A DNA stretch of 63,760 bases, filler included, from Stramenopiles sp. TOSAG23-6 (lineage: Eukaryota): NCBI GenBank assembly GCA_900128565.1. It is 9 parts of 9 records of this genome, joined end to end, with 100 filler letters (N's around TTAATTAATTAA, not from the genome) between each part and the next. Parts side by side here need not be neighbours in the genome. Positions count along the whole stretch, not along the records: positions 23,332 to 34,752 come from LT636259.1; 8 more parts are not named here. One strand, given 5' to 3'. Each line of letters opens with the position of its first letter. Positions within the stretch are counted from its first letter, which is position 1. This document shows positions 11,101 to 39,461 of the stretch, one piece after another. A program made the translations under genes and the position numbers. The notes beneath the pieces were generated by a model. The model saw nothing but the letters and a program-made list of their open reading frames with translations. It did not search any database and was not told where the DNA came from.

Positions 11101-11584
11101 GAAAATAATACTAGTATATACTAAAGAAAACACAACGAATTGAATATATTGTTGTACAAAACATTGTACATAGAGATATAAAAGGTTCAAATTGTTTAGT
11201 ATCGCGAAATGGCACAATAAAATTAGCTGATTTTGGTTGTTCTCGAGTTTTACATTCAAATAACCAATCTAAAGATGCAAGTCAATCTTTTGATTTGACG
11301 GCTGTTGGAACACCACAATATATGTACGTTTTCATTTCAATTTCGAATTGTTTTTTTTCGTACGAAATTTTGTACCTAAGATTTTTTTTTTTGAAATATT
11401 TTTTCATAATCCATGGCGCCAGAGGTGATGATGAAATCAGATAATTTACCTGAAAATAACCCAAATTTTTTTGTTATGAGTTTTGACGGAGAAGCAACAA
11501 TTGAAAAATTACGTAACAAATGTGAAACTATAAATACAAAAAATACAAAAAATACAAAAAATACAAAAAATACAAAAAATACAA
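8127..11584 (+). CDS. STE11/MEKK-like MAP3K with PB1-like segment; multi-exon, truncated by contig end
   Basis: [57 protein letters not shown] after splicing; YEDRVGDWI resembles PB1. Linkage to the 8127..9557 ORF is uncertain. Confidence 0.8.
10575..10678 (+). other. Family intron with probable GT-TG ends (104 nt)
   Basis: t|GTACAT...CACAATATTG|ta gives [15 protein letters not shown]; no AG or AT acceptor gives this frame nearby. Confidence 0.6.
11010..11164 (+). other. GT-AT intron (155 nt)
   Basis: at|GTATGT...ACAAAACAT|t restores [14 protein letters not shown]. Confidence 0.85.
11324..11414 (+). other. GT-AT family intron (91 nt)
   Basis: at|GTACGT...CATAATCCAT|g restores kinase GTPQY-M-APEV. 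Confidence 0.9.
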
Positions 11585-11628
11585 NNNNNNNNNNNNNNNN
11601 NNNNNNNNNNNNNNNNNNNNNNNNNNNN

Positions 11629-11640
11629 TTAATTAATTAA
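11629..11640. other. Artificial contig spacer; also at 23276, 34797, 46312, 57827, 59323, 60818, 62312
   Basis: Identical TTAATTAATTAA (stops in all frames) flanked by N runs. Confidence 0.95.
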
Positions 11641-11744
11641 NNNNNNNNNNNNNNNNNNNNNNNNNNNNNNNNNNNNNNNNNNNNTTTTCGTACGAAATTT
11701 TGTACCTAATAACAAAAATCTTGTACTATTTTTTCACAATACAT

Positions 11745-12397: not shown

Positions 12398-13820
12398 TTA
12401 CTCATTATTCGCCTTTGAAGTCCATGCAACAAGCCACTTTAAATTAGTAAGTAAATATTTTAACGCAAAAGTCCATTTTTGCCAGTCACCTAATTGAATT
12501 GAGTAGCCTCCTATTTTATAATCCTTAATTTGATACGGCATATGAATGGTACGATCAACACGTGCCGCATATCGACCAAGTTCATCAAGACAGGCAAGAA
12601 AAGCAACCATGTATGGTGAAAAAAAACTTTAAAAAAAAAATTGTTAGATACAAAATTTTCTTAGTACACTCAAATGAAGTACACAATTAATTAGGGTTAG
12701 GGTTAATGAAAACAAACATTCCTCGATTATATGCACTTTTACCACGCCAACCACCATCCCAATATAGAGGATTGTAGTTACGCTCATCACCAATACGACT
12801 CACTCTAGAATACGATCCTTTTGGTATAATTCTAAATTTGCTAAATTTAAAATTCAAATGACTTTTAGCAATAGTTGTCATTAGTACAGCTGCCTGACCC
12901 CAAGCCGCATTAATTTCAGCAAAATCCACAAGTTGTGTCGGAAGCCTACCTAATCTGAATGTGTTAATTGTACCAAATGGACCCGAATGCCATATATAAA
13001 AAGCATCATTATTTACATTCGTTCTTTTAAGTTGTAATAATTTTTCATCCAGGCGTTGCTCCTGAAGTACCAGTGACCTCAACTCTTGGGTATCACAATC
13101 CAATTGAAGTTCCCAGTTGCCTGTTTTTTCCCAATATTTTCTGGATGATATTTTTAGTTTTTTTGTCTTTAATTTTTCTATTCTTAATTCATTTTCAGTT
13201 TTCTCTACTTGTAGCGTTACTTGTGACACTTCTTTTTTCATTCGTTCCAATTCGAGTCGAAGTTCCGCCAGAGAGAAAGAAGAAAATTCCCGAGACTTTG
13301 TTTTTGTTTTTTCGTTCGATGCCTTTGCTATATTACATATAGTTGAACTGTTATCACTGATATCTACTTTCTCCAAAGATTTCATAAAGTTTAGATATAA
13401 ATCACGCTCAGCAAGAACTTCTTCCAACTCTTTTTTTACTCTTTCTTCTGAATTCATACTGCAGCGAGCACACAAAGGTTGACATTCCACGGGATCACTT
13501 GCTAATGGAGAACAAAACCTTGCCAGGCTACACAGAGCACTCAAGGAACTCTTGCTATCATAAGTCAAAGAATGTATCATATCATCAGAATCACTCCGTG
13601 TTGCGTTATGCTCTACAGTCCCATTATTCCCACTCGTTGAATCTTTCAAAGAGCCAGCCTGGACAAACTTCCGAAGAGCGCGGAATCGATCATTAAATGA
13701 TTCTTCAGGTGGTAATAGAACTAATGGGTAGCCGCAACATTGACAGGCAGGGTCCCAAGAGGATTTATCCCAAGCCACTTCAAAATCTACCGGTGGAACT
13801 ACTTTTTTTGAGTCAACCAT
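12398..13820 (-). CDS. ATG6: Beclin-1/Atg6; 2 exons
   Basis: QPLCARC, LKRTNVNNDAFYIWHSGPFGTINTFRLGRLP, EINAAWGQ, AFLACL, WTFALKYLLTNLKW. Confidence 0.95.
12609..12717 (-). other. GT-AT family intron (109 nt) containing a telomeric dimer
   Basis: at|GTTTGT...CACCATACAT|g restores YNRG-M-VAFLACL. Confidence 0.85.
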
Positions 13821-14276: not shown

Positions 14277-15858
14277 ATGGCGTCCAAAGTTCTTGGAAAT
14301 AGTAGAGGTGTTGGTTCATTGTGGAATCCAAATTCGTACCACTGGGAAGAAACAAATCATACAAAGTTCTCTATACAACTTCTTGAACACCTTTTCAAGT
14401 CTATTTCAATTGACTGTGGCGACGCGACGTGTCACATAAAGGAGGTTAGATACGTACGCGGTGATTCAGCAGTCAACATTCGCCGAGGGAAAAAAATTGC
14501 AATATTTGAGTTTGAAGCCCAGTTGCGATGGGAAGGATACTCAAAGTTAACCAAGAAAAAAAGTAAAGGCACAGTTGATATACCTTCAATTGTCCCTGAA
14601 GATGTTGAAGATGACGAATTTGAAGTTCATATATCTGGTGACTCTGGACCAGCTGCTACACTCATGCGAGATAAAGGAAGACGTGCAATTTACGCGGCGG
14701 TCAGAAATTTTCTCAAACGTTTAATGAGTATTGGTAATGATCATGCTGCAATAATAGCAGACAAAAGTCGTCGCATTGAAGCAAAAAAAAAAACAGATGA
14801 AGCAATACAGTTAAAAGGTAAAGAAAAATTAGCAATTGAAGAAAAAATACGTCAACAGGAAGCAGAAATCCTTGGTGTGTCCTCAATGGAAACAGAACGA
14901 AAAGCCGCTCTCCTTCCTTTGAAAAAAACAGTGAAACAAAAAAGTAATCCTAATCCGACTACCATTAAACAAAAGAAAACCCTAACCCTATTACCACCAA
15001 CTCCACCTGAAAATTCTCAAGACATTGGTGATAAAATCTCTACAATTTCGATAGAAAATAAAGCTTTTGTAGCTGCTCATTCGGCTGAATCCGCTGCAAG
15101 TAAATTAATAAATCCATCTCCACTTTTTGCAACCAAAATATCTCAAATTTCCCCAACAGAAAAAACAGAAAAAACAGAAAAATCATTTCAGCTTGTACAT
15201 TTTCAAAATTAAATTTCAAATTATTTTTTTTTCATAGTAAATTTTGTACCTAACAAAATATTTTACAAAACAAAAAAACAAATATTTTTTTCCAATACAT
15301 GGAAGTCAGTGGAATGAAAGAAGTTTTCATTGGGAAAATGCCGATATCACAAAATGGGCTATTCAGACATTAAGAAAAAAAATTTGTAATATATCAAGCC
15401 CTAACCCTAGTCAAATATCAGTCACAAAAATTGAGAAATTGGAAGGTACAGCAGAATTTGCCTCAAGAAAAGGAAAACAAATAGTTTTATTTGAGTTTAT
15501 TATAGAAGCCAGTTGGAACGGGAAATTATGTGATGGTAGTGGAAATATACTCGTTTCTACAAATGGAACACTTACCTGGAGAGAGTGTGCCCCAGACAAT
15601 TTAGATCCAGACGATATCCATATAAAATTTTGCAGTGAAAATTCTTCAAATGCTATAAAACGGCTAGAAAATATCGCTTCTGTAAAATTACGCGCTAGTT
15701 TGTTACGTTGTGTTTGTGAATTAGAAAAAGATATGTATTTTGAATTTTTTTTTCAATTTCGAATTTATTTTTCGTACGAAAATTCGTACCTAACGATTTT
15801 TTTTTGAAATATTTTTCCAAAATACATACGTAATGGGAAATTTAGGATCTCTGAGTAA
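14277..15858 (+). CDS. Protein with two Aha1 N-terminal (Hsp90 activator) domains; 3 exons
   Basis: WNPNSYHWEE...RRGKKIAIFEF and WNERSFHWE...RKGKQIVLFEF; introns 15195-15300 and 15735-15827. Confidence 0.8.
15195..15300 (+). other. GT-AT family intron (106 nt)
   Basis: ctt|GTACAT...TCCAATACAT|gga gives FQL-GSQWNERSFHWE. Confidence 0.85.
15735..15827 (+). other. GT-AT family intron (93 nt)
   Basis: Full consensus; splicing gives LEKD-I-RNGKFRISE*. Confidence 0.7.
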
Positions 15859-16845: not shown

Positions 16846-16937
16846 GTATGTTTTATATGAATTTTTTTTTCAATTTTTTTTCATACGAAATTTCGTACCT
16901 AACGAATTTTTTTTTGAAATATTTTTTCACAATCCAT

Positions 16938-17139: not shown

Positions 17140-20100
17140 CAATATTGTCCAAAATATATATGTACCAAAATGTTATATTTAATGCAAATCTTGAAAATTC
17201 TCAATTATGCCATCAAAATTTTAATTCATTTACCGACGGTAGTTTTGTAGCAAATAAGCATAGGCTGGACACACTAAATGATCAACGCGTACGTCATTAT
17301 ATTTATTTTTTTTAAGTACGATATTTTGTACCTAATTTTTAAATTTTATTTACATTTTTTTACATTTTTATACGAAATTTTTTTAAATTTTTTTAAAATT
17401 TTTTAAAATTATTATATTTTAAATATCAATCGAAAATTTTTTTAAAATTTTTATATATTTTGTATATTTCTTTACAGAATATATTTTATCAGATAAAGAT
17501 ATGATTGAAATACAACAATTAAAAGCAGAAGAACGAGAACGAGAAAAAATTTGTAGGTTTAAAAAAAAAAAATCGTACGAAATTTTGTACCTAATGATTT
17601 TTTTTTAAAACCCTAACCCTAACCTAACCTAATACATAAATGAACAATACAGTAGCTCAAGCGTTAAAAGATGCTCATAATAAGCATATTTGTCGTATAC
17701 GTGCTCAGCGAATTCGAGGTAAAACTTCTGGTGAACGAAATTGTTTTTTAGGTATTTTAATTTTTTTCATACGAAATTTTGTACCTAACATTTTTTTTTC
17801 AAATTTTCAATTTTAAAATGATTCTAGAAAATGTTTTTTTATTTCTACAATAATAATTTTTTATTTTTGTACAAATTTAAATGTAAATTTAAATTTAAAA
17901 TTCATTTAAAAAAAAAATTGAAATATGTCAAACCATTGCAGGTATATCAAAAGATGGTTCTGGACAAACCTGGCAGAGTCTTTCTGAAACACGAAATCAA
18001 CAAAAACGAAATCAACGAAAGTATAGGTACAATCATAATAATAACACACCTAAATTTTTTAGACAAACGAAATCTTCATTATTAAGACAAAAACGATACC
18101 AAAATGACCAAAATAACAAAGAAATGACGTCACTGTTGATGTCTCACAGCAGGTCTGTCAAAAAAAATCCAAACTCATCACGAAATACTAAAAAAACTCC
18201 AAAAACGTTACGTAAAAAATTACGTAGAAAGAAAAATGAAGAAGAAACAAATACAACAAATACAACAAATACAACAAATACATCGTTTTGGTATAAGCAG
18301 CGAAACACAAAAATAAGTGAAAGTGAAAAATCTGTAAATTTTAGAAAAAAATATGAAACTTTTTTGAATTCTGAAAAAAATTTTGAAAAAAATTTTGATA
18401 ATAATTTTGATAATAATATTGAGGAAAGACCTCAATGGTCTCTTAGTAAAAATAATATGAAAAAAGTATCCTATAGTAGACCTCATATGGCTCCTGAGCG
18501 TGACACAAATGAAATTTTGGGTATACAACAAAATGATTCCAATTATTCTGGAGATGTGCGTTAAAAAAAAAAAAAAAAAAAAAATTTCATACGAAAATTT
18601 TGTACCTAACCAATTTTTTTATTATTCAAAAAAAAAATATTTTTCACTCTATACAATGTAAATATTACAGAACGTCATAATAGCGACATCAAAGTATTTA
18701 CTGCTCCAATGGGTGATTCTACAACTGGTACAACAAATTCATATAAAAATATAAAAAAGTCAAAAAATAATAATTTTGGACAAAATGATAATTCAACAAT
18801 TTTGTATGAAAATTTTGTACCTAAGGAAAGTTTTCCCGATAAACACGAATTCTTGAATGGTTTAGAAGAGTCTCTTGAATCTATTGATCATGATGTAAAC
18901 CCTAACCCTAATGAAAGTTGGGTCTTTCATTCAGATGTACTAGATGGATTACACGAAATATCAAAAGAAGAAGAATTTGTAGAAAACCCTAACCCTAACA
19001 AAAATATTCAGACTACAAATGACTCATTACACGAAATATCAAAACAAGAAGAATTTGTAGAAAACCCTAACCCTAACAAAAATAATCTGACTACAAATGA
19101 CTCATTACACGAAATATCAAAACAAGAAGAAATCGTTGAACATTTGAGTGAGTTTTTTTTCAAAATATTTTTGAAAAACCTTGAAAAAAAAAATTCGTAC
19201 ATAATTTTGTACCTAACGATTTTTTTTTTCAAAAATATTTTTTCACAATGAATTCTCGAAATCATCAAAAATTGATATGAATATGAAAATATGGCAAAAA
19301 GTGATTGATACTGCAAAGAACAATACTAGTGGTAGACCGGGTAACGTATTCTTAGAAGACATCTCCAAAGAAAATATTGATTTTACAATGATTACAGAAT
19401 TATTACAATTACAAAACAATTTTCATACAAAAAAATATACACCTACCCGTACGTTGTTTATATACAAAATTTTGTAAAGAAAAAAAAAAAAATCTAAAAT
19501 TTTTTTTCATACAAATTTTCATACCTAACATTTAAAAAAAAAAATCTAAAAAAAATCTAAAAAAAAATTTTTNATACAATATTTCATACCTAACATTAAA
19601 AAAAAATTGTATATATATTATATACTCTTTAGGTATTTTACGCATCAATCATCCATACGAGCAAAATATCATTGGATCTTCAGAATCGACTTCAATTATT
19701 GAGTTACAAAACAAAACAAATCATAATGATATTCAAATGTTATTTTATGGTGGAGATAGTGAGGAGTTGACATCTATTGCGAGATTTGGTTTTTCATCAT
19801 TACACGAAAAACACGAAATGTCTACTAACCCTAACCCTAGTCACCCACAAAATGGTGATGCTTCTATAATTATCTGTTCTGATGATATCAATATTGCTGA
19901 TCAATTTCATAAATCATTACCAGAGACTCATTCTGTTGCATTACCTGGCCATTGGAAAGGTATAAAATTAACTGCCACGTGGCGAACACTATTAGTCGCT
20001 GTTGCGCCTGGTGAAATTGTAGACACAAACCCTAACCCTAGCTATACAAAAGGTTTAAAAGGTGTAAAAAAATGTATAGAAAAAAATGACTTGACGAATG

Positions 20101-23231: not shown

Positions 23232-23331
23232 NNNNNNNNNNNNNNNNNNNNNNNNNNNNNNNNNNNNNNNNNNNNTTAATTAATTAANNNNNNNNNNNNN
23301 NNNNNNNNNNNNNNNNNNNNNNNNNNNNNNN

Positions 23332-24559
23332 CTGAAGCACCCACAAAATTTATTCCTTTTTTATTATTACTATTATATTCTTTTTTGTGATTGTTGCTTA
23401 TACCATTTTCTCTAAATATTGTTTTACTTTGAGCGACAGAAGATTTTTTCGTAGTATCAACATAATCACTTGCAAATCTTTGGTATTTATGATTATTAGG
23501 GTTAGGGTTATCAACATAATCACTTGCAAATCTTTGGTATTTATGATTATTTTTCATTGGCCCTTCCACACTCATCTTCCATCCTTTTTCGAAAAGCATC
23601 TGATTGACTCTTGAGTCTTCACACATGGAGCTGTTATTAGCACTGTTGCATGAAGTTTGCTGAAACGAATCAGTTTTCTCATTTTCAGAACACTTTGAAT
23701 TTTTGACACTTTTTCTATAATTACTATCAATCGGAGGAATGTCGTTTTCTTCGCACAAATTTATAGGCTGATTTGAACTAATTCTGTGAACTACTGTTGT
23801 TGGTACTGAATGTACTGCAACTTCATCATCTAAAATAACCGTGTTTCGTGTTTCGTTCTTCATGCTGGATATTTTTTCCACATTTATTTTCTCGGAAGTT
23901 TCCTTTGTGATTTTACCTTTTTTCGACCCGGATAAAATAGGATTTAAAAATGTAAATGGATTTTCACTGCTTATACTATCATTACATACACTATCATTAC
24001 TATCGGTAGTTGTATTTTTTTCCACGTCAGGGACACTATTGTCGGCAACAATGACGGGAGAATTGATAGGATCTGAAAATCTATCAAGAGTTTCCATAAA
24101 CGAGCAAGCTTCAATTGGCTGAATACTATCTGGAACAGCAACTACACATACACCTGCTTTACCATTTACTGTAGTATTATCTTTAAATCGAACGACGCAA
24201 TTCACAACACTAGTAGGGGTCAAAGCAACAGGTGCTGATGGAGGCTTCTCACGCAGAACTTCTACTTTTCTAGGTATATGGATATCTACCATCTGGTTCC
24301 GTGGAAGAGTCGTAGAACAAACAACTGGACTAGTAATGACTTCAGAAGTAACATCATTCTTTGCAGAATCATATATAGTTTCAAAATGATCATTTTTCGT
24401 TTGAACAAAAGGAGTTGTTGGGTTTGTTCTCATCGGCTGAGGAGTCGACTCTAGGGAATGTCTATTCACTCCTATTGGTGAAATACTATAACTTCGTCCA
24501 GAATCAGTTCGCTCAAACGAGAAACCCTCATCAGCCGTAACATTTACATAAGATTCCAT
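23332..24559 (-). CDS. Hypothetical S/N/T-rich protein, truncated by contig end
   Basis: >400-codon ORF; internal duplicate NNHKYQRFASDYVD. Confidence 0.6.
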
Positions 24560-24999
24560 TGCAATATACTCACCTTAACATTTAAAAGATGGATATCAAA
24601 ATTCAAGAACAAGCAAAAACGATATACGTCTGATGGTGATCCCTGTTGTTTCTCCCTATCACTCTCTCTACCGGTCACTCATGTGAAGCCACACTGAATC
24701 TACTGTTTTTGTACCAAATTTTGTACCAAAATTTAATCTAGAATTTTTTGCAAGCATCATCATCTGATGGCTGGGTTCTGGGTACCACATATTTTCAATA
24801 CCAGGTAGACCTCTCACTTACCACACAAACATTCCTCCTACGTTGACTAAAAGTTCATATGAAAAAGGACCTCGCGCGGATTAACTCTGTATTATTCAAT
24901 AGACTATATTTTTCCAGTATCTGTAGACACTACTACACAACAGGCTGAAAATTTCAGATTGCATCATTATTCGGTTTAATATCGTGTGTTGTTTGAGTA

Positions 25000-27900
25000 A
25001 TGGTTCCTAATTGGATAAAAAAGGGAATACGAAAACGTCCTTACTCTGAAGTTGCTGGAGTTGTGAATGGAACTCTTCCTCAGGAAAGTGGACCTCCCAT
25101 AACGCCCGATCATATGTCCATCAAAGAACTATCCACGAAATCGTCAAGTGCGATACAAATAAATGATGAAAATGTAAATTCTCGAAATATTCAGGTGGTT
25201 CAATCTAAGAATGTGTCTAAAAAAAAAGGAAAAAAGCGTAAAAAACAGACAGTCGAAGAAAAGAAAAATTTCGCCGAACGCATGGCAAAAGGCAGAGCAG
25301 AAAAACGACGCAAGCAAGCAGCGCAGACAGCAATTGATGAATTAAACAAAGACGTCTCTGAAATTGTAGATGAGAGTGAAGTAAATGAAGAAGAGGAATG
25401 CGTCGGTAATCGTAGAAGTTCGCGTTCTCGAGTATCCAGGTATATGCAAATTGACGGACAAACTGTTTTGAAAGCAAATAATTATACAATGGAACAAGGG
25501 GAACTTTCAGTGTATTCGCGTGAAGCTCGAGGTACGTTTGATGCATCCTCAAATGATATTAAGAGACCTGTTCGAAATGCATATATGCTATTTATGTCAG
25601 AATTTGAAGCCCCAACAGAAGACAATAGACCTTATATACAGCAAGCTTCGGAAACATGGCAAGGTCTTTCAGATGCTAAGAGAATGGAATTTAAACGCCG
25701 TCACCAACAAATGGAAGAAAAATGGTTAGAAACGGTTGAAAATAATAAAAGAAAAGCTCAAGAAAAAATAGCTGCAGAAAAATTAGCCGATCAAAATAGG
25801 CAAATTTTAGCAAATAAACAACGCGACGAAGAATGGCAAAAACTAAATGAAAAACGCAAAATGAGTAAAGCTGCAAAAATGAAGGCACAAGGTAAAGATC
25901 GTGTGTTTGATCTGAGTACTATAGAAGGTCGTCGCCTTAAGCATAATAAATCAATGAAAGCTGAACGAGAGTCAGTTATTGCTCTACGGAATACAGTTTT
26001 TGCATATTATCGAAATAATCTCAAAGGATTTACTGAAAATATCCCTCATGCCCTTTCAACATCTGAGTATGATGTAATGACGGCAGGGCTCGTGGATACT
26101 GAAGGCGCCCCATGTGTATCTCAACCAAGTATTATTGTTAATGGTACTATGAGAAATTATCAATTGAAAAGTTTGGAATGGCTACTTTGGATGTATGTAC
26201 GTTTTCATCAGAAATTTCAATTTTATTTATTTTCATACGAAATTTCGTACCTAACAAATTTTATAAAAAAAATATTTTTTCACAATATATGATCATGGTA
26301 TGAATCCAATTCTCGCTGATGAAATGGGATTAGGTAAAACGTTGCAGACAATTGCATATTTAGCTGCATTAAAAGAGAGGGGCGTGTGTGGTCCACATGT
26401 ACGTTTTCATTATGAATTTCTAATGTATTTTTGTTTCATATGAAATTTTGTAATTAATGATTTTTTTGATTTTTTTGTTTTTCACAATACATCTTGTTGT
26501 TGTGCCATTGAGCGTAATGAGTTCATGGATGAGTGAGTTTCGTCGTTGGTGTCCATCGCTACGTGTAGTTCGCTTGCATTCACAAGACAAACATGAAAGA
26601 ATGCGTTTGCGTACATTTTCAAAATTGAAATTCGTTTTTTTTTTTATCATATAAAATTTTGTATCTAACCAAAAAAATCAAATATTTGAAATATTTTCCT
26701 ACAATATATGTACCCATGTAATTGCCGATGTCAAGAATTATGACGTCATTGTAACTACATATGATTATGTTAAAGTGAAGGAAATGAGACACACTTTGAG
26801 TTCTCGCATAGCTTGGAGATGTCTTGTACTTGACGAGGGTCACAAACTGAAAAATGATGAAGCTGAAATTAGCCTGGCAATGCGACGTGTTAATTGTCAA
26901 TCAATACTATTATTAACTGGAACTCCTTTGCAAAATAATTTACATGAGTTATGGTCTCTATTGAATTTTTTATACCCTAAAATATTTCCCGAATCGATTG
27001 CATTTGATGACGCATTTAGTTTAAATGGTTCCCAGATGCAAATTAAACGAGACGTATTGTCAAGAGCACATCATCTTATGGTTCCTCTAATGTTACGCCG
27101 TGTGAAACATGAAGTCGAAACTATGCTTCCTCCAAGAGTTGAAACAATTATCAAATGTCCATTGAGTGAAATGCAGAATTTTTGGTATAAACGTTTGTTG
27201 TTGAAGAATTCTGCCATGTTACAAGGATTGGAAGAAAGACAAATTTTAAAAGAGAAGGGGGAAAATGTCGGACAAAACTCTGGTGGTGAATGGAAAAAAT
27301 TGAAAAGTTTAATGATGCAACTTAGGAAATGTTGTAATCATCCATTTCTATTTCCTAATGTTGAAAATACACTTGCAGATGCTGATGAATTGATCAACGA
27401 AGATGGTGCTGCAAATGAATCAATCGTAAAAGCATCTGGAAAAATGGAGAACTTGGATCGTTTGCTTACTGGGTTGTTTGCAAATGGTCATCGTGTAGTC
27501 ATATTTTCACAATTTACAAGATTTTTAGATATTGTAGATGATTATCTTCAACTTCGTGGCTATCAATTCGCAAGACTAGATGGAGGAACAAATCGCGTAC
27601 AACGTATGGTCGACATACAAGAGTTCAATAAACCTAATTCTCCATTAGTTGCATTCATTATGAGCACAAAAGCAGGTGGTTTGGGTGTAAATCTTCAGAC
27701 TGCTGATACAGTTATTCTTCTAGATAGTGATTGGAATCCACAAAATGATTTGCAAGCGATGGCTAGAGTTCATCGTATTGGTCAGACTAAGTTGTGTCAT
27801 GTATATCGTATGGTAAGTTCCGGTACGATGGAAGAACGAATTGTACAACGTGCTCAAAAGAAATTATTTCTAGATACAATGGTCAATCGTGGTTCCACCT

Positions 27901-29547
27901 CTAATGCTAAAGCGGTAGAAAAATTAGGTAGCAAAGAACTTCTTGAAGCTTTGTCCTTTGGTGTAGAGCGATTGTTTGACAAGAAAAATGATAATGATTC
28001 ATTGGAGAAAGATAGATATTTGAGTGAAAGTGAGGTAGCTTCTATAATTGACCGTTCAAAAACAAAAGAATCTGTGAAAATCTCAGTTAATAATGAAGAT
28101 GATAATACTAATGATGTATCTGAAAGTTCATCTACAGCAACTACGATGAAATCTTCGTCAGTGAGTCTACAAAGTGGTCAGCGCCAAACTCTTGCATCAT
28201 ATGATGAAGTCGCACCAATGACAAAATTAACATTTTTTCAAGGACAAGATTTCCGTGCTGGGGGTGTTGCTACATATAAAGATATGGCAGATGCTTGGGT
28301 CGAAGAACTTAAATCTAAGCGGAAAGCGCGTGAAAGAAAGTCTAGATATATGCAAATTGATGGACAAACTGTTTTGAAAGCAAATAACTATACGATGAAT
28401 CAAGGGGAACCTTCTGTGTTTCATCAAGAAAATAGAAAAAATAAAGACGAACAAGTAGCTATCGTTGCTCAAACTGGTCCACAACGTGCTGGTCGTGATT
28501 ATGAGCATGAATCACAGTGTTTGTATTGTTGGGACGGTGGTGATTTAGTGTGTTGTGATGGGTGTCCTGCTTCTTTTCACTTAGAATGTTTAGGATTATC
28601 AAAAGCTTCTTTAGATAATATGAAATTTCAATGGTACGTTTTCATATTGAATTTCAAATTTTGTTTTTATACCAAATTCTGTACCTAACGATTTTCGGAT
28701 TTTACATTTTTTTTCACATTACATGTATTGTCCTCATCACTCATGTATAGAATGTGGTCGCAAGGCTGCTGCGGTAGGTGGTCTTATTTTCCGATGTGAG
28801 GTTTGTCCTACTAGTTATTGCGAGGATCATTTACCTGATATTGCACGAAATAACATTACAAACAAATGTAAAAGATTTCAAAATCTCGGCCAAAATCATC
28901 CGAAACAAGCTTGTTTTGTGCTTTGTTCTGAAAAATGTCAAATCTTCCACAAGGCAACAAATGGTGGTTCTAATTTAAGTATTTTTAATACTTTGGAAAA
29001 TAAGGAGAAAGCAATGCGGAACGCAGAACGAGATTTAAAGAAAGAGAAACAGAAAAAAACTCGTGATGCGTTGGCATGGCATAAAACAAAATCAGACGAA
29101 CGCAAACAATGGTATGGCAACAGCACATCTGATAAATTTGACAGTACAAATAGTAAAAATAAATCGTCTGAGTCTTCATTGATAAAAACAGAAGAAAATA
29201 CAGAATGTTATAAAAAAACTCGTTCAAAATCATTATTAAATGAAAATCGGTGGTTCAAAGGTATGCGATTAAAAGTTGATTATATGGGTAGACAATATTC
29301 CGCTAAAGTAGTTCGAACATCTAAAACTGCTTTGTATGTAAAGTATAGTGATGGATCACAAGAGGATATCTTATGGGAAGATGTCGAGGAGCGGGTTATT
29401 AAAGTCCCTGTAAAAAAGAAATCTGAAAATGTCATTTTGCCTCCACAAGACGAAATTAAAAATGAAGACAATCAAATAAATTTCATTTTGCCTCCACAAG
29501 ACGAAATTAAAAATGAAGACAATCAAATAAGTATACACGATTTATAA
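25000..29547 (+). CDS. SNF2-family chromatin remodelling ATPase with HMG box, PHD fingers and Tudor-like C-terminus; 5 exons
   Basis: [11 protein letters not shown] (HMG); [95 protein letters not shown]. Confidence 0.93.
26197..26290 (+). other. GT-AT family intron (94 nt)
   Basis: tat|GTACGT...CACAATATAT|gat gives [23 protein letters not shown]. Confidence 0.9.
26399..26492 (+). other. GT-AT family intron (94 nt)
   Basis: cat|GTACGT...CACAATACAT|ctt gives [10 protein letters not shown]. Confidence 0.9.
26611..26709 (+). other. GT-AT family intron (99 nt)
   Basis: c|GTACAT...TACAATATAT|gt gives [23 protein letters not shown]. Confidence 0.85.
28634..28724 (+). other. GT-AT family intron (91 nt)
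   Basis: tg|GTACGT...CACATTACAT|g gives FQ-W-YCPHHSC. Confidence 0.9.
29433..29529 (+). repeat. 45-bp tandem duplication at the SNF2 3' end
   Basis: cattttgcctccacaagacgaaattaaaaatgaagacaatcaaat x2 ([15 protein letters not shown]). Confidence 0.9.
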
Positions 29548-30322
29548 TTGGCAACACTTGTTTCTCTCCATTATTTTCACTCGCACTAGTAATTTTGCTT
29601 TCTTGTTGTTGCTGTTGTTGTTCTTGTGGCAATGTTGATTTCACGTTTTCGAAAGCTCTTATTTTCTTTAATGGTGATAGTGGTGTTTGTGGTATTGATT
29701 GTTTTTGTTTTGTACAATTAGGAGTTTGTAAGGAACCAATAGCCGTCTTTATCCATTGCGTAACTTCAAGTACTTTCTTTTTATGGACTGCTAATGCTGA
29801 ACAAGTTTGAGGCGCAAATTTATCAACCCAAAGATCATGTTTTTGTTGTTGATTTTGTAGTTTTGAGGGAAATATCGGTATTTTTCTTTTTCTACTTTGG
29901 TATGTTACATCCCTATGTCCTAGTGATTTTGTTTGTTTCAAAAAAGAAGGGTTTCTGTGTTTCAAGTCATTCTCTATTTTTGGATGTTTCTTTGTAAACT
30001 CTTCATTGATTTTTTTCCTATCTTGTTTCACAACCACACCTCTTGAAGGACTTTTCATGGTGCCTCTAACAGCATTATGCATCGTTCGATGGGAATTAGT
30101 ATCTATACTTTTTTTGGCTCTCTTTCGAGGTTGTGAACCTGATTGACATTTTGTAGAAAGCAAAGCACGTCTTGAACTACTTCGGGTGTTTTTAGAGACA
30201 CTTTCTGCACCATTTGCAAACCAATCGATAGCATCCTCGATATTCTTGAATCGCAACGACGCATGCTTGGACTTTTCGGCATCGAATCCCATAGCGAGTA
30301 ATTCGCTGAGAATATTCGGCAT
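29507..30322 (-). CDS. UBA domain plus RAD17-like N-terminus, apparently truncated before the ATPase domain
   Basis: LLAMGF...AIDW (UBA); LWVDKFAPQTCSALAVHKKKVLEVTQWI (RAD17 N-terminal motif); no Walker A. Confidence 0.6.
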   Translation of the reverse strand: MPNILSELLAMGFDAEKSKHASLRFKNIEDAIDWFANGAESVSKNTRSSSRRALLSTKCQSGSQPRKRAKKSIDTNSHRTMHNAVRGTMKSPSRGVVVKQDRKKINEEFTKKHPKIENDLKHRNPSFLKQTKSLGHRDVTYQSRKRKIPIFPSKLQNQQQKHDLWVDKFAPQTCSALAVHKKKVLEVTQWIKTAIGSLQTPNCTKQKQSIPQTPLSPLKKIRAFENVKSTLPQEQQQQQQESKITSASENNGEKQVLPIINRVYLFDCLHF

Positions 30323-30557
30323 TTTGTTGAAAAATTCAATAATATGGATGAAGAAATATTCTTTTCTGACCTGACCAGTCTGTAAAATTTTGCGATTGAT
30401 ACCCCTAACCCTAGCTAGGCCTAGAATATTTATACGCAGATGCATAATATTATAATTTGATGCGCCGTTAAAACGTTTTTGAGAATTGATCTTGAGTAAC
30501 TGTTGATCGGTTAAAAGCAACGAAAAACGGTTCAAAGAAGCCAGAAGTTCACATAAA

Positions 30558-31475
30558 ATGAAAATACGTCCTATATTGGCACAACCATGTACAAGTTCAG
30601 AGACTGAACTAGAATTAGGATTGGGTTATTATCACGGCGACGGTGTTAAAAGGAATTATGAGTCGTCATTTCGTTGGTTTGAAAACGCTGCTAATTTGAA
30701 CAATTCTGATGCTATGTTTATTTTAGCTTATCTATATACAAACGGAATTGGTATATCAAAGAGTAAACATTGTGCATCAGTTTTGCTGAAAAGGGCCAGC
30801 ATGCAAGGTCATACTTTAGCAGAAGATATTCTAAAACATATTTCTAAGAGTGATAATTTAATATCTACCATATTTGAAAGGTACACAAAAGCAAAAAAAG
30901 GTCTACCCAGTGGACAGTGTATGCTTGGTGTCTGCTCATACTACGGTATTAATAATACCCCACAGAACTATAGTACTGCAACAGCATGGTTCACTAAAGC
31001 AGCAAATGCAGGATATGCTTATGCTCAGCTTCGATTAGGAATATGTTATGAAAATGGGCATGGCGTGCATGAAAATTATAAAGAAGCTGTCCATTGGTAC
31101 AAGGCTTCTGCTTGGCAAAATAATGCTGAAGCTCAATATAAGCTTGGTAAATGTTTTTATCACGGTCATGGTGTAGAAAAATGTTATAAAACTGCAATTT
31201 CTTGGTATAAAAATGCCGCAGAAAACAAACACGAAAAATCATTTTTAGAATTAGCGTATTGTTGTGTGCTTGGCCATGGTTTGAAGCAGTGCTTTAGCAA
31301 TACCTTCCATTGGATACAGAAAGCAGCCAATGCAGGTTCTCCGGAAGCTCAGTATAAACTTGGGATTTGTTATTATGATGGTATTGGTGTGAATATAAAT
31401 TACAAATTAGCATTAGAATGGCACAAAAGAGCATCAAAACAAAATATTAGTTCAATGAAAAAGAGTCAATTTTAA
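30558..31475 (+). CDS. Sel1-repeat protein
   Basis: Repeated AQYxLGxCYxxGxGV...AxxWYxKAA. Confidence 0.92.
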   Translation: MKIRPILAQPCTSSETELELGLGYYHGDGVKRNYESSFRWFENAANLNNSDAMFILAYLYTNGIGISKSKHCASVLLKRASMQGHTLAEDILKHISKSDNLISTIFERYTKAKKGLPSGQCMLGVCSYYGINNTPQNYSTATAWFTKAANAGYAYAQLRLGICYENGHGVHENYKEAVHWYKASAWQNNAEAQYKLGKCFYHGHGVEKCYKTAISWYKNAAENKHEKSFLELAYCCVLGHGLKQCFSNTFHWIQKAANAGSPEAQYKLGICYYDGIGVNINYKLALEWHKRASKQNISSMKKSQF

Positions 31476-31476
31476 T

Positions 31477-33058
31477 TTAGTGTTTATTGGTATAACAAAT
31501 CTCGCACGTAAGAAAATTTTGTTGATTATAAAATGTACAACTGGGACAATTCCATCCTTTCTCTGTATTTAAATCATCTCTTCCTTTCTCTGTATTTAAA
31601 TCATCCCTTCTTTTCTCCGTATTTAAATCATCCCTTGTTTGCACCGATTGCGATATTACACAGTTTACTGTAGTTTTTTTTTGGAACACATTTGTTTTTG
31701 CACTATCATTTGTTTTTGTTCTATTAAATTTCTTTCGTTGATTTTTTTTTTTTTTTTTTTCGGGTAACTTTAGGTTTTGTATCTTGTTTTGTTTCGCTAT
31801 ATGTTTTATCTTTTTTTGTTAAAGTTTCAGTATTTATCTCATTATCCAATCGGTTACAAAGTTTAATATTTTTTATTGAATTTATTTGTCTCGGGTTCAT
31901 TTGTTGTTTTCTAAGTTGTTTTTGTTGTTTTTGTATTTCATTAGTAATTTTAATAACTTCATTGTCCCACTTTTGTTCTTTACGTTTATTTAAATTATGA
32001 GTAGTGCTACAGCTTACATTATTTAGTACATCAAGTCCAAGATATTGTTCAGGTGTTGACAACTTTGAAGATAAAGTTTTAGCAACAACTCGATCAATAC
32101 TACATGCTAAAAATGAACTGACATTATTGTATGTAATTGGTATGGCACATACTGGACAAGGTACCGAATCTTCTATTTTGCCGTTGTTTAGTTTGATAAC
32201 GGTATCCATTGAAGCATTCAATTCGTTTTGAAGTTTATTTGTCTTCCATAAAAGATCTTTGTGCTGACTACGGATCAATTTCAGTTCTTTGCGTTCATTC
32301 GCCAATACTACAGAAAATTTTGATATTTCAGTCTCATAATTGTGACGTTCTATATACTCTACCTTTGTTAAAATACCTTTCAATGCCATATTTGCTGCAA
32401 GTTTTGTTTTTAATATTTCATGTTTTTTTTCTAGACTTTTGACTCTTTTCCCTGCAGAATTCAATTTTTTTTTCTCTTCTTTGAGTTTTGACAGAGACAA
32501 CTGCACACGTGATTCTAAAGTAAAATCAAAATTTTTTTTTGTGTAGGAACGAATAATACAACGTCGCCACCAATCAGCGACACAATCGTGGTGCATACTA
32601 TGAAAACAACCCGTCGGACGAAATGTTTCAGAAATATTTAACTTCTCCAGGCATATACAACAAATACCAGCAACATTATTCTCAGTCAACAACTCCCGCG
32701 TACGTTCAACGAGCTGAATTATACTTGGTGTTTGATCTGATGCTAGGTCAGACGATAAAGCCGCAAGTTCATTCTCAAGTGAGTTCACTACAGAGCCATC
32801 AAGACCTCGAGTGCGCTGTAGTCGACACTGGACTGCCCCACGATAAGGGTAACTTTCTGGTAATTCTAAGCAAAGAAAAGCCTCAACAAACATTTTATCA
32901 ACACAACCCTCTGTATCTGGACGGAGATGGACTGTCACAGATGTACTAGTTACACCAGAAGAACTAGCATAGGAGGAAAGCGTGCAATCCTCACCCACAT
33001 AACCCATATAAGTGAGCATTTCAAGCTCCATTTGCACGTCTTCTGATGGTTCACACAT
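31477..33058 (-). CDS. RWD-RING E3 ligase (RNF25-like) with C-terminal RanBP2 zinc finger; frameshift in a poly-A run
   Basis: ELEML..LPESYP (RWD); CCIC..CFHSMHHDC..coiled coil..CPVC; WNCPSCTFYN..CEIC in the downstream frame. Confidence 0.8.
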
Positions 33059-33414
33059 GCGGCTATCACAATTGCATTCGATAATACAAAGTTCTTACAA
33101 TTATTACTCGATGACGTTTGGCGGATAATCGCGTGTGATAATTATATAGGTGCTAGCACTAGCCTATTTTAATAGAAAATAGACTCTTAGTGTTCCAGTT
33201 AGGTTCACGTATCTAGCCTATACAAGTATTTATACATACACCTCCATGGCGATGGGTCCGTATTGTCCGTAAGCATGCCAATGTAGTTGATGTCATCATT
33301 GTCACTGAACAGAAATTTTTTTGATGTGTTGAGACATCGACATCAATGCGAATAAATTCGAAATTCGGGAGGGGGTTTAAAAAAAAAAATTCATTTGAAA
33401 TCATGTACATTTTT

Positions 33415-34752
33415 TTATTCCCAAATGAAAATACCTTTACCAGAGTTAAAAACAAAGTCTGCACCATCAATACGTACTATACCAGCATGTAAATTACAAA
33501 TCCAACGATGTGATATATTCTCTTGAGTAGGTTGCATTTGTTGTTTAATAAATTTTGACGAATTTNNNNNNNNNNNNNNNNNNNNNNNNNNNNNNNNNNN
33601 NNNNNNNNNNNNNNNNNNNNNNNNNNNNNNNNNNNNNNNNNNNNNNNNNNNNNNNNNNNNNNNNNNNNNNNNNNNNNNNNNNNNNNNNNNNNNNNNNNNN
33701 NNCATCACTACAATCATAATCTGAGCCAATTACAACATCATCATCAACTCCATCATTATCACTATTATTTTCATTCTTATTATTCACAACACACTTTGCT
33801 TTACTTTTTTCAAGTAAAACAGACAAATTATTTGATTTATTTACTTTTGTATTTGAACAAGATATATGTGAATATACTTCATTCATAAAAGAATCATCAA
33901 ATTCAGTTGATAATTTTGTTTCTATGTCTTTTGTATCCAGAATACCATCACTCGGAGGGGTAGAATTGAGTAAATTTGAAATTGAATCCGCACTAAATTT
34001 TGTACCTAATGAATTTTCAAGATGCTCACCCACATCGTTCATGAAATTATCTGTAGTACAAAGGGACGAAGATACATTTGAAACTTCATTTTTGATATGT
34101 AAAGGAATTGGTAATGGGATCGGTAAAGGAAGTGGATGAATTACATTCTGAACATGAAAAGGCATACTGATAGAATTATCTATCAAAGGTACAGCTATAG
34201 CTGTATTGTTTAATAAAGGTTGCGCATTATTACATGCAACTATATTATGGTTGCAATTTGTACCATTTTTCGAATACGTTTCGACAGTTGGAATGGAACG
34301 ACGCGAACGCTTTGCCATTTGAAAGCCCGACACGGGGGGAGAAGATTTATTGTTAGTAGNNNNNNNNNNNNNNNNNNNNACTCATTCAATAGTTTTCGCT
34401 TTCTTGTTATAAAGGGTTGTGTTGGATTAACTCTACCAGAGGGATCAACTACACGTTCATCTGACATCATTAATAACTTGCTAAACGTATTAACATTTTG
34501 GATACCCGATAAATTCGACGCATCGTTACGTTTTGAAAAAACACTAGTAGTAGGGTCACACTTTGAAGTGATTGTTTGATCACCGGGTATCAAGGACCTG
34601 AGGTTATAGTCACGTTCACAGTGCTCACTGAAATTCTTAACCCATAAGCTTCTTAATCGAAGAATGGTCTTTTCATTATGGCCTGCGGATTCAAGAAGAG
34701 GACCCACAGCTATCAGTACACGGTCAATGACACGGGCATACAAAACTCGTGT
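33415..34752 (-). CDS. GTF2A1: Transcription factor IIA large subunit (alpha/beta), gapped
   Basis: N-terminal YARVIDRVL...LRSLW; C-terminal WICNLHAGIVRIDGADFVF..GIFIW. Confidence 0.75.
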
Positions 34753-34852
34753 NNNNNNNNNNNNNNNNNNNNNNNNNNNNNNNNNNNNNNNNNNNNTTAA
34801 TTAATTAANNNNNNNNNNNNNNNNNNNNNNNNNNNNNNNNNNNNNNNNNNNN

Positions 34853-37800
34853 GGAAGATAATAGGAAATTCTTCCCAGGAAAGGTGAAGTCTATGAATGG
34901 AGATGGAACATTCAATATTGTATTTGATGATGGCGATGAAACTAACAAATTAGAACGAAAGTTTATAAAGATTTTAGATGAGGATTTACCATCCCCTTCT
35001 CCGGCGCCGGACAATAGTATTGCAGATACAAGTGGTGCATTATTCTCAACTGACCCTAAAGTTGCTGTCAATGACACAAAAGCGGATGCTATTTTCACTG
35101 CTGGAGATCTAGATGGCGATGAAATCTGGAATCTCGAAGAAGCTAATAGGGTTAATCAAATACTTGGTGAGGACCCAATGAATGCAGACGATTTCAAAGA
35201 ACTTTGTCTCGTTGTTGGTTGTCATGATACTGGTGGTATAACAAAAGATGGCGTGAGAAAAATGTTTTCGATGCAAGAAGGTACTTCAGAACTTGATAAT
35301 GCATACAAATTATTGGTATTGTCGTCTTCTAAAGCTGGTCAATATATCGAAGGGGCAAAAGTTGAAGCCCAGTTTGGTAGTGAAACTGGTGAATGGTTTA
35401 AGGGTAAAATTGATCGTGTAAACAATGATGGTACATTCGATATTTTATATGATGATGGTGATCGTGAAAGAGTTGTCCAAAAACATCGAATTCGTTTGAA
35501 AGAGACAGCAAATACCGATATATCTTCAAAAGATATAGAGGATGATATAAATAGTGATGGAGTGTTCAAAGAGGGTGATGCAGTAGAAGCGATGTATGGT
35601 GACGGTGAAATTTGGTACCCTGCAACTATTACGAAAGTAAAACACGCGTCACAAGAAGACATTACTTATGATTTACTTTACAATGATAAGGATACTGAGA
35701 TAGGAGTCATACCCTCAAAGATCAGAGCGACTGAAAAATTATCTTTGCAAGCTGAGGACAAATTAATTGAGGAGCTCTTCACCGCAGGAGATCGTGATGG
35801 CGATAAAATTTGGAATCTTGAAGAAGCTAATCGAGTTAATGAAATCCTAGGNGANGCACCGATGAGTGAAAAAGATTTCGAAGAGCTTTGTGTATCGCTT
35901 GGTGATACCAGTGAGAAAGGAATGACAATCAATGGTGTGACTGAAATGTTTACCTCACAGCAAGACACTCAATCAGAACTTACTAGGGCTCGAAAACTTG
36001 TCATTGAAGCAATGAACGCAGCTGCTTTAGCCAAAGATCGAGGATATACTCTGGGTGATCGCATTGAAGCAAGGTTTGGCGGAGATGATACATATTACCC
36101 AGGAATTGTACAAGGTATAAATGATGACGGCACATTCGAGATTTTATATGATGATGGGGACAGTGAACCTACAGTTAAACATTTTTTATGAGACATCAAA
36201 GTGTGGTTGAGGATACTGGTGAGGATACAACGAATGGAAATTTGGGTACAGCAAACACAAACAAAAATGAGAAGGCCAGTAATTCATTGAATGAAAAGAA
36301 CTTCGTCGTTGGTACAGTCATTGAGGGTAATTATAATAGTGAAGGCAAATGGTTTAAAGGTAAAGTGGTCAATGTAAATGAAATTGACGGATCATTAAGG
36401 TACGACATTACATATGATGATGGTGATATTGAATCTGATGTTTCTAGCGAGAATATCCGATATCCTAAATTGGGTGGAGGTTTATTTACTGCATCACAAA
36501 AAGTTGAATGCAAGTATCAAGGAAGTGAAGAGTGGTATTCAGCATCAGTACTCTTGGCTAATACTGATGGCACTTATAATATTGCTTTCGATGATGGAGA
36601 TAGAGAAGATAATGTTCCATCTGAATTAATCCGTGCTCTTGATGATACACCCGAGGATAACGATTCGAATCTGACAAAGGATAATGAAAAGAAAGACCAG
36701 AAACAAGTTGACAAAACCAAAGAACCACAAGAGTTAGATGCAACTCCAGTGGAAGAAAACAAAGAACCACAAGAGTTAGATGCAACTCCAGTGGACGAAA
36801 ACAAAGAACCAGAAGATGCAGAGGAAACTCCAATGGACGAAAACAAAGAACCAGAAGATGCAGAGGAAGCTCCAATGGACGAAAACAAAGAAGCAGAAGA
36901 TGCAGAGGAAACTCTCATGGAAGAAAAAAAAGAAGCAGAAGATGCAGAGGAAACTTCAATTCAAGAAAGCAACCAGGAGGTAATTTCAGCCGATGAAGAC
37001 AAAAATTTAGAAGGTATGGAAACAGNGAAAGGAAATGAATTAGAATTTTCAGTTGGAGATTTAATAGAAGGTCAATATGATAAAGGCCCGGAGTGGTTTC
37101 CTGGTTCCATATCAGCAGTCAATAATGATGGTACGTATAATATAAAATATAGTGACGGTGATTCAGAAATGAATGTTCTAAAAGAGTACATTAGAGTACC
37201 ATTGGTAGGTGGTGGTTCATTTTCTGAAGGTGATCCTATAGAAGCATTATTCAGAGGAGAATCTGAGTGGTTTCCCGGAATGATATCTAAAGTGCATGAC
37301 AATAATACGTATGATATTATGTATTATGATGGCGATATAGAAGAACAAGTGGCTTCAACTCTAATTAGAATGTCGGATAATAATGCTGCTAAAGCAGCAC
37401 AGACTGCCGTTGCTAATTCCCCGAAAGCTAGTCAAGTACCTCCAGATGCAGATGAAGAATCCGAGGATGATGGTCCTCTTCTAGAAGGCTCCGCAGTGGA
37501 GGCATTATCCGGAGGCAATTGGGTTTCTGGTCAAATTAAAAATGTTCGCGAAAAGAAAGTAGAAGGAAAGGATGAAACTACAATTTCCACTTTTACATAT
37601 GACATTTTATTTGACGATGGAGAGCGTGAATCTAAGATGGATGCCAGCGATATCCGTGTTCTTTCAGCAGAGGATGCAGTTGCAGCTGCAGCTAACCTTG
37701 AAGGAAACAAAAAATACTTAGAAAATGGGATGTCAGTTGATGCTTTATATAACAAAGGAAATCGTTGGTTTGCTGGAAACGTAGGGAAGAAGAATGTACA

Positions 37801-38007
37801 TTTTCATCATTAATTTCAAATTTATTTTGTTCGTACGAAAATTTGTACCTAACAATTCTTTTTACTAAAAAAATATTTTTCACAATACATGAAAATGGTA
37901 CATATGAGATTGTGTATCATGATGGGGATATCGAAGAAGAAGTTCCACGAAATTTTATTAGATTATCATTAGGATCTAGACTGAAAATGATGTCCCAGGG
38001 TAAATGA
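34853..38007 (+). CDS. Large multi-Tudor/Agenet-like repeat protein with EF-hand-like inserts; 5' end off contig
   Basis: Many 'GxxVEAxY..WFxGxIxxVNxDGTYxIxYDDGDxE' repeats; probable 1-nt indel at ~36185; intron 37796-37890. Confidence 0.8.
36715..36960 (+). repeat. 39-bp coding minisatellite (KEPEDAEETPMDEN-like units)
   Basis: ~6 degenerate tandem units. Confidence 0.8.
37796..37890 (+). other. GT-AT family intron (95 nt)
   Basis: aat|GTACAT...CACAATACAT|gaa restores KKN-ENGTYEIVYHDGD. Confidence 0.88.
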
Positions 38008-38684: not shown

Positions 38685-39026
38685 TGTTATAATTACTGAA
38701 TCGAATCATAAAGAAGAATACAAGGACACAATGTCATCATATAATAACTAACTATGAATCACGAGATGGTTAGAAATTTTCGATTTTAAATTTTAAATTG
38801 TAGTAGAATTCGAATTTCGTTCTTCAGCTGAAAATTCTTTTTTTGAATTTTTTTTGAAAAATTAATTTTTCTCTCTCGCGGAGCTGCCGGAGCAGGTTTG
38901 TCCTTCGAAAGCGCTTCTTCTGAGTTGAAGGCAGTGCGAAGAGTGAAAGGAGTGCTGCAGTTGAATTCAGTGAGAACCAATAATTAAATTGCTTGGTCTT
39001 CAGAGCGAAACGCATCATAATTAGAA

Positions 39027-39461
39027 ATGTCATATTTACTGCCTCATCTGAATTCAGGATGGGCTGTTGATCAAGCCATTTTGACCGAGGAGGAACGTGT
39101 TGTTGTGATTAGGTTTGGTCATGATTGGGACAAAGAGTGTATGATAATGGACGAAATCCTTTGCCACATTGCGGAGAAAGTAAAAAATTTTGCTGTGATT
39201 TATTTGGTCGATATAAGTGAGGTATCTGATTTTAATACAATGTATGAATTGTACGACCCTATGTCAGTCATGTTTTTTCATCGCAATAAGCATATTATGG
39301 TTGATTTTGGGACAGGAAACAACAACAAATGTAACTTTCAGGTGGAGAACAAGCAGGAGATGATTGATATTATTGAAGTCGTATATAGGGGGGCTGTTAA
39401 AGGTCGAGGTGTTGTTATATCACCAAAAGTATATTCCCTCAGAGACACTGCTTTAATGTAA
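39027..39461 (+). CDS. TXNL4A: Dim1/TXNL4A U5 snRNP protein
   Basis: MSYLLPHL..GWAVDQAI..EERVVVIRFGHDWD..RNKHIMVDFGTGNNNK. Confidence 0.96.
   Translation: MSYLLPHLNSGWAVDQAILTEEERVVVIRFGHDWDKECMIMDEILCHIAEKVKNFAVIYLVDISEVSDFNTMYELYDPMSVMFFHRNKHIMVDFGTGNNNKCNFQVENKQEMIDIIEVVYRGAVKGRGVVISPKVYSLRDTALM

Follow-up and report, generated by a model that had tools for sequence, protein, structure and literature searches.

A probable family of introner-like introns with a GT-AT rule in the genome of a marine stramenopile

An intron-final AG is among the most constant signals of eukaryotic genes, read by U2AF and again in the second catalytic step of splicing, and a gene that is interrupted by segments ending in AT raises the question of where these segments begin and end and what removes them. 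The gene in question encodes a SNF2-family ATPase with a PHD finger and lies at 24997-29547 on the plus strand of a 63,760-nucleotide (nt) stretch of DNA from Stramenopiles sp. TOSAG23-6 (assembly GCA_900128565.1), in the part taken from LT636259.1 (positions 23,332 to 34,752). We refer to the whole stretch, filler included, as the window, and positions count along it. The SNF2 frame is interrupted four times, and across the window 22 segments (these four and 18 others) need removal at an exact length and place to yield conserved proteins. We consider it probable that they are introner-like spliceosomal introns following a GT-AT rule, most of them belonging to one high-copy family that populates the AT-rich nuclear DNA of a marine protist.

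Deletion of intron 1 (26197-26290), intron 2 (26399-26492), intron 3 (26611-26709) and intron 4 (28634-28724) leaves a single open frame of 4173 nt, the product of which matches the Pfam domains SNF2-rel_dom (2.5e-48), Helicase_C (3.6e-24) and PHD (2.3e-05), with weak matches to C5HCH and Tudor in exon 5. Exon 1 (24997-26196) is open for 400 codons up to the donor, its extent being that of the open frame and its homology starting at residue 139. It is followed by intron 1 (94 nt, phase 0, tat/GT..AT/gat, where slashes mark exon borders), whose removal restores ATPase motif I. Between exon 2 (26291-26398, 36 codons) and exon 3 (26493-26610, 118 nt) stands intron 2 (94 nt, phase 0, cat/GT..AT/ctt), which lies within the 4-base direct repeat ACAT, while removal of intron 3 (99 nt, phase 1, tgc/GT..AT/gta) restores the peptide RMRLR/THVIADV. 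Exon 4 (26710-28633) codes for the SNF2 and helicase C domains and for the N-terminal half of the PHD finger, at which point intron 4 (91 nt, phase 2, atg/GT..AT/gta) interrupts a conserved Trp codon (TG/G); its removal restores KFQW/YCPHHSC without a gap relative to the homologues P0001 and P0002. Exon 5 (28725-29547) ends at the stop codon. Introns throughout the window were placed by reading frame or protein homology, and it is on this basis that the junctions stand.

Residues 139-1215 of the spliced SNF2 product can be aligned to the transcript-derived P0001, and all four junctions are gap-free when it is aligned jointly with 10 homologues. The closer relatives P0167, P0168, P0170, P0171 and P0172, found with exon 3, are continuous across junctions 1-3. 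Since the SNF2 junctions are gap-free in homologues, the length and the place of the removed segments are fixed to within the repeats at their borders. A diplonemid origin, to which work on non-canonical introns had pointed, was set aside: the nearest labelled proteins are GSMAST32 gene models, and the named homologues come from green algae, Lotharella and stramenopiles. The spliced SNF2 protein also contains a 33-residue motif twice, at residues 149-182 (25441-25542) and 1018-1050 (28048-28146); it is common to the relatives P0167 and P0171 and carries no Pfam name.

Within the border repeats, the choice of register depends on how far each intron can be shifted without a change in the product, which we determined for 20 introns. 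Intron 1 of the SNF2 gene slides from -3 to +1 (TA-TA, AT-AT, TG-TA, GT-AT, TA-TG), intron 2 from -4 to 0 (AC-AT, CA-TA, AT-AC, TG-CA, GT-AT), intron 3 from 0 to +4 (GT-AT, TA-TG, AC-GT, CA-TA and, at +4, AT-AC) and intron 4 from 0 to +3 (GT-AT, TA-TG, AC-GT, CG-TA), with an AT-AC reading impossible in the last. GT-AT alone is available to every one of the four. Across the 20 slide-tested introns GT-AT is permitted in 19, TG-CA in 14, TA-TG in 13 and AT-AC in 9, and the twentieth is GT-AG in the same register. Adding the introns at 11010-11164 and 60876-61025, which were placed by motif, gives the tally of 22, in which the 5' end is GT in 22/22 and the 3' end AT in 21/22 and AG in 1/22.

Most of what the original prediction had said of this locus is borne out by these comparisons. 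It had given the span of the four SNF2 introns (26197-28724), the coordinates and flanks of introns 3 and 4, and those of 44909-44997 (ac/GT), 44632-44723 (ct/GT) and 15195-15300 (tt/GT), as they are found here, and its remark that many junctions sit in short direct repeats agrees with slide ranges of up to 4 bases and with the recurrence of AT/G at both ends. GT-AT is, as it proposed, the only register that the SNF2 introns share, and the alignment to SNF2 homologues by which it suggested checking the spliced protein is the gap-free one described above. It was also right that introns 3 and 4 cannot slide to the left, and that the donors lack the U12 consensus, TATCC at donor positions +2 to +6 being present in 0/22 introns. 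Its use of intron 3 to exclude an AT-AC reading fails: there is indeed no left slide, but a shift of 4 bases to the right yields AT-AC. For the SNF2 set as a whole AT-AC is excluded nonetheless, introns 1 and 4 having no such reading.

The GT-AT register is also supported without the assumption that all introns obey one rule. The last two bases of the upstream exon vary (AT in 14/22), whereas G at +1 and T at +2 are invariant (22/22), and the AG-ending intron of the fumarase gene (61355-61453), where the frame demands AG, has this AG at the aligned position of the AT found elsewhere, a variant that falls on exactly the last two intron positions. AGs inside or just after the introns are otherwise unused, and AG is tolerated at the AT position in this one copy. 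AT precedes the donor in 14/22 introns, far more often than its background frequency of 0.10 would predict (p = 1.5e-9), and in 17/22 cases the following exon opens with G. The exon site therefore resembles AT/G where ordinary introns have AG/G, a resemblance that could reflect either a target duplication of 2-3 bases or an altered splice-site preference; left slides of more than 2 bases occur in only 3/20 introns, and a longer target duplication is therefore unsupported. Two other explanations were considered and set aside: TA-bounded excision of the Paramecium kind is ruled out in that no register of intron 2 begins with TA, and a ciliate genetic code is ruled out by long exons that are open under the standard code.

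The four SNF2 introns are alike over their whole length, and a search of both strands of the window with a profile of the four yields 57 matches; 38 of these, the 4 training copies among them, have E <= 1e-3. A family copy is ~90-125 nt long and comprises a donor GTAYGTTTT, a nearly invariant internal box TTTTGTACCTAAC, a T-run and an extended acceptor CACAATACAT/G, the consensus pieces being GTA[CT]GTTTTCA..., TTTC[AG]TACGAAATTTTGTACCTAAC, the T-run and CA[CA]AATACAT/G. Beyond the invariant GT, the donor is conserved at A3 (19/21), Y4 (21/21), R5 (21/21) and T6 (20/21; n = 21 throughout), and YTAA, a putative branch site, occupies a single aligned column in 19/19 copies. Where the script located the conserved box, in 16 copies, its distance to the 3' end is 32-59 nt, and each position from -16 to -11 is T in 15-21 of 21 copies. 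The two ends of the element resemble each other over 4 bases only (GTAT/ATAC).

Family copies interrupt the genes for SNF2, kinase, Beclin, Aha1, Tudor, EF-hand and fumarase. Introns taken from different genes are up to 0.92 identical (44909-44997 and 46563-46651), and the median pairwise identity is 0.67, compared with a median of 0.59 and a maximum of 0.68 for shuffled copies; this is identity beyond what the signals alone require, and the copies therefore go back to a common ancestor, as is the case for introners. Automated picking returned 41 candidate rows, 15 of which scored well (5' score at least 8/9 and 3' score at least 9/10). Removal of these well-scored copies brings the two longest frames on either side into phase in 14/15 cases (binomial p = 2e-6 for an expectation of 1/3), and in 26/41 when all picked rows are counted, those with wrongly picked ends, flanks of N or chance boxes included.

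The introns of the other genes repeat the pattern. In the kinase gene on the plus strand, a family member with GT..AT borders lies at 10575-10676, and a 91-nt GT..AT intron at 11324-11414, which slides through AT-CC, TG-CA, GT-AT and TA-TG, joins the peptide GTPQYM/APEV. Between them stands a diverged 155-nt intron (11010-11164) that has no GTACCTAAC box, leaves several internal AGs unused and ends in CAT, again with GT..AT borders; since this diverged, box-less intron also ends in AT, the AT rule is not limited to the youngest copies. On the minus strand, a 109-nt GT..AT intron of the Beclin/Atg6 gene (12609-12717) joins YNRGM/VAFLACL in agreement with P0127, P0128 and P0129 and without an indel. 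Further GT..AT introns on the plus strand are those of the Aha1-like gene (15195-15300, 106 nt, slide -1 to +1), which joins frames of 308 and 168 codons, of the Tudor/Agenet gene (37796-37890, 95 nt), and at 44632-44723 (92 nt) and 44909-44997 (89 nt), the last being 92% identical to the 89-nt GT..AT intron of the EF-hand gene on the opposite strand (46563-46651, minus). The fumarate hydratase gene, on the plus strand, holds three: a composite intron (60876-61025) in which the 5' half is repeated in tandem and which ends in ..GACAT, the 99-nt GT..AG intron at 61355-61453 that is the sole AG-ending family member found, and a frame-joining GT..AT intron of 104 nt (61633-61736).

Some introns are built of tandem partial family copies, namely 9720-9900, 6500-6664 (minus strand) and 60876-61025, in which a second GTATGTTTTCATCATGAATTTC follows ...GACAT. 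Telomere-like CCCTAA/TTAGGG repeats occur within or beside intron copies at 12640-12700 (minus strand), 9540-9570 and 17600-17630, and the Beclin intron contains the telomere-like AACCCTAACCCTAA.

Evidence from seawater samples bears on the abundance of the element and on its removal. Four sequencing runs were compared, all represented by low-depth contigs; exon depth in the RNA libraries is ~2-8, and these libraries may hold DNA or pre-mRNA. DNA nearly identical to the window is present in seawater metagenomes: contigs of the DNA metagenome X3, from another sample, span 26262-28179 and 28153-28928 and carry introns 2-4 (intron 4 in X3 record 13), with no difference listed at the ends of these three introns; the interrupting DNA is accordingly genuine. 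The bin that contains intron 1 (26068-26409) reaches a depth of 9476 in the DNA metagenome, against ~6-9 on exons, and ~1700 in two RNA-library runs, against ~2-8 over exons, consistent with seawater samples containing the element, or close relatives, in very large numbers. When a metagenome was scanned for an 18-base core of the element, 7 loci came up, each a chance match without the family, and the family profile matches these loci in the seed region only (E ~8e-4).

Several observations weigh against removal by splicing at GT-AT borders. The argument from a shared register presupposes one rule for all introns. One well-scored copy (16846-16937) fails to join its flanking frames, and the spliced protein would end 3 codons past the junction. 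Spliced RNA across the predicted junctions was sought in metatranscriptome contigs, and neither this nor any lariat read was seen; the only listed RNA contigs over intron 4 retain it, X7 record 26 (28532-28744) whole and X6 record 21 (28528-28700) running into it. Among the 15 of 65 joints that were listed, 0 match a predicted intron, and the listed joints derive from cross-matches among intron copies. In the polyA run X13 just 8 contigs aligned, none of them at a junction. The RNA-library result is an absence of support, and a point in favor of the view that the segments are retained; it is not a demonstration that splicing is absent.

If the segments are spliceosomal introns, then the pre-mRNA would be cut before GT and after AT, with AT taking the place of AG as the 3' splice-site dinucleotide. 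GTATGT, TACTAAC and a pyrimidine tract are the classical signals of the major spliceosome, the yeast-type U2 donor being GTAYGT, and a donor extension of this type would be compatible with U1 and U6. Judging by the donor and branch signals, removal would occur at the RNA level through the major (U2-type) spliceosome, and the CTAAC within TTTTGTACCTAAC would be the likely branch site. The choice of the 3' site may have moved from AG to AT, perhaps through altered U2AF or second-step factors, and the family may have spread by copying itself into AT/G sites. A more far-reaching version of this account is that the major spliceosome of the lineage replaced AG by AT as its 3' signal in essentially every intron, with a shift of the exon site to AT/GT and co-evolved factors, and that a self-copying family carried the new rule through the genome; this we put forward tentatively, as a possibility that we do not favor over its denial.

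It is conceivable, though in our judgment unlikely, that these are instead minor-type (U12-like) introns of an expanded and transformed minor system such as that of Physarum, with the 3' end set by its distance from a strong branch site. GT-AT is a known non-canonical U12 subtype, which according to passages of the Physarum report makes up 17% of the non-canonical U12-type introns there, and the same passages describe how U12 small nuclear RNA (snRNA) and the branch motif can co-evolve (bioRxiv 10.1101/2020.10.12.336362); Blastocystis, a related stramenopile, is described as having hundreds of minor introns (bioRxiv 10.1101/2022.09.24.509304). The long and strongly conserved donor and branch box, commoner in U12 than in U2 introns, and a last intron base that tolerates both T and G point the same way. 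A T-run nevertheless precedes the acceptor, and Rfam returned 0 families at gathering scores, hence no major or minor snRNA, in what is a small window. The donor, too, lacks TATCC in every intron and has the yeast-type U2 form GTAYGT. The box GTACCTAAC has CCT..AAC in common with the U12 branch motif TTCCTTRAC, but its position, 32-59 nt from the end in 16 copies, compares with a limit of at most ~45 nt given for the U12 branch site in part of the Physarum report (bioRxiv 10.1101/2020.10.12.336362). Quite improbable, to our minds, is removal without any spliceosome, in the manner of the nonconventional introns of euglenids, diplonemids and Amoebophrya, where structure and border repeats would guide a machinery of another, unknown kind. 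Junctions here do often lie in short direct repeats, with slides of up to 4 bases and AT/G at both ends, and the introns are repeated elements, like the introners described in passages of the Amoebophrya report (PMC7789003). Intron bases 1-5 (GTAYR) are moreover complementary to YGTAC directly 5' of CTAAC in 95.8% of cells (alignment A1, columns 1-5/99-103), but this pairing shows no covariation, 446/500 shuffles scoring at least as high, and a small hairpin before CTAAC that pairs in 79.8% of cells is equalled by 169/500 shuffles. Minimum-energy folds pair the intron ends in 0/8 introns, and a fold more stable than that of the shuffles is seen in just 1/8 (z -6.2; the remaining seven range from -1.9 to +1.0). 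There is no consistent fold. The uniform borders (GT 22/22, AT 21/22) and a donor, branch box and T-run like those of spliceosomal introns also speak against this mechanism.

That the segments never leave the RNA, as recent transposon insertions that inactivate their host genes or as elements excised from DNA in some cells, appears very improbable, even though RNA-library contigs keep intron 4 and copies of the element are very numerous. The well-scored copies stand in sense orientation between frames that join in phase in 14/15 cases, and the flanking exons are open and conserved in essential genes (SNF2, Beclin, fumarase, kinase), which would be unexpected of dead genes. The DNA metagenome, among the 15 of 65 joints listed, contains no intron-free joint with these borders, and to our knowledge no DNA elimination of this kind is known in stramenopiles. 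We find it scarcely credible, finally, that the true register is AT-AC or some other slid pair and that GT-AT is a by-product of the repeats. Nine of the 20 slide-tested introns can be read as AT-AC, SNF2 introns 2 and 3 among them, but in these two the reading falls at different positions of the element (slide -2 and slide +4), the other 11, such as introns 1 and 4 of the SNF2 gene and that of the kinase gene at 11324-11414, cannot be read in this way, and the AG variant pinpoints the last two intron bases.

Spliceosomal GT-AT introns of an introner-like family would combine features of several known systems. They resemble canonical U2-type GT-AG introns in their GTAYGT donor, CTAAC box, T-run before the acceptor, preference for G at the start of the next exon and one AG-ending copy, and differ from them in a last base that is T in 21/22 cases, the long acceptor CACAATACAT, a preference for AT at the end of the upstream exon and the skipping of internal AGs. 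With the U12 GT-AT subtype of animals, plants and Physarum they share the terminal dinucleotides, a conserved donor and branch box and a tolerant last base, but not the [AG]TATCC donor (0/22) or the branch distance (here 32-59 nt from the end), and GT-AT is the rule among the introns of the window whereas it accounts for a fraction of a percent in U12 systems. The likeness to the introners of Micromonas, Aureococcus, Symbiodinium, fungi and other groups lies in near-identical short introns in unrelated genes, dozens of them in 64 kb, in a marine host, and in a coding sequence left unchanged by splicing. Known introners carry GY-AG borders in the survey of Gozashti et al. (bioRxiv 10.1101/2022.06.06.494994), parts of which describe it as having begun from annotated introns; the present introns depart from them in their GT-AT borders, and in lacking a clear terminal inverted repeat and any evident target duplication longer than the AT(G) consensus. 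No empty sites were seen.

A further comparison is with Fritillaria borealis, Amoebophrya, hemistasiid diplonemids and euglenids, where, as here, most introns are non-GT-AG, genes are mis-modelled and borders lie in short repeats. Passages of the respective reports describe many border pairs and a GT that is mostly lost in Fritillaria (PMC13326754), Amoebophrya (PMC7789003) and diplonemids and euglenids (PMC12621601), and for Fritillaria borealis hold the major spliceosome, with a diverged U2AF, still responsible (PMC13326754). The introns described here have, unlike those, a single uniform GT-AT pair, otherwise classical signals and no pairing between intron ends. A literature search for GT-AT as a dominant intron class found none, GT-AT being reported only as a rare class. 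A term search of three marine stramenopile (MAST) genome papers (PMC5778133, PMC12614181, PMC8163842), supplements excluded, returned no discussion of splice sites in the text covered, and in the searched text of the first the word "intron" occurs twice, both times in the methods.

What would be new, then, is a uniform GT-AT rule among introner-like introns of the spliceosomal kind, as read from their sequence. Such introns would add a case of a self-copying intron family bearing a non-standard border. Should the switch extend to essentially all introns of the lineage, a core splice-site dinucleotide would for the first time have been replaced uniformly, with the self-copying family spreading the change genome-wide. 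A free-living host with a classical donor and branch site but an AT end would be a natural experiment on the choice of the 3' splice site and on spliceosome drift. There is also a practical side: the public models of this DNA, forced onto AG acceptors, are wrong, the SNF2 ATPase motif being lost in one of them, and functional inferences drawn from single-cell genomes of abundant marine grazers may be distorted accordingly.

Such models exist for two loci of the window. The EukProt models GSMAST32.ASY1.ANO1.872.1 and.2465.1 (P0126, P0169) are letter-identical to window exons at 12401-13820 (minus strand) and 24997-29547 (plus strand), and the GSMAST32 label suggests a MAST-3-type stramenopile. 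The Beclin model P0126 uses an AG 18 nt before the end of the intron and so gains the residues IFFSPY, absent from three homologues, while P0169, the model of the SNF2 gene, relies on AG acceptors, is missing ATPase motif I and part of the PHD finger and reads into introns. Both contain spurious in-exon deletions. Since both public models are mis-spliced, the AT rule was evidently unrecognised when they were made.

As to the wider context, ARAGORN found 0 transfer RNAs in the window, the G+C content of which is 26-41% in 2-kb steps. Identical 100-base spacers (44 N, TTAATTAATTAA, 44 N) stand at 11585-11684, 23232-23331, 34753-34852 and 46268-46367, and the same 44 N-TTAATTAATTAA-44 N arrangement recurs at 57783-57882, 59279-59378, 60774-60873 and 62268-62367. 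The window therefore has the look of several short contigs in a row, and genes on different pieces need not be neighbors. Many single Ns occur elsewhere. The fumarate hydratase at 60990-61940 (plus strand) is of class I (Fe-S type), and further genes include an intron-free ARF GTPase at 2522-3058 (plus strand) and, at 39021-39458 (plus strand), a candidate recognized by eye for a Dim1-like thioredoxin-fold protein of the U5 small nuclear ribonucleoprotein.

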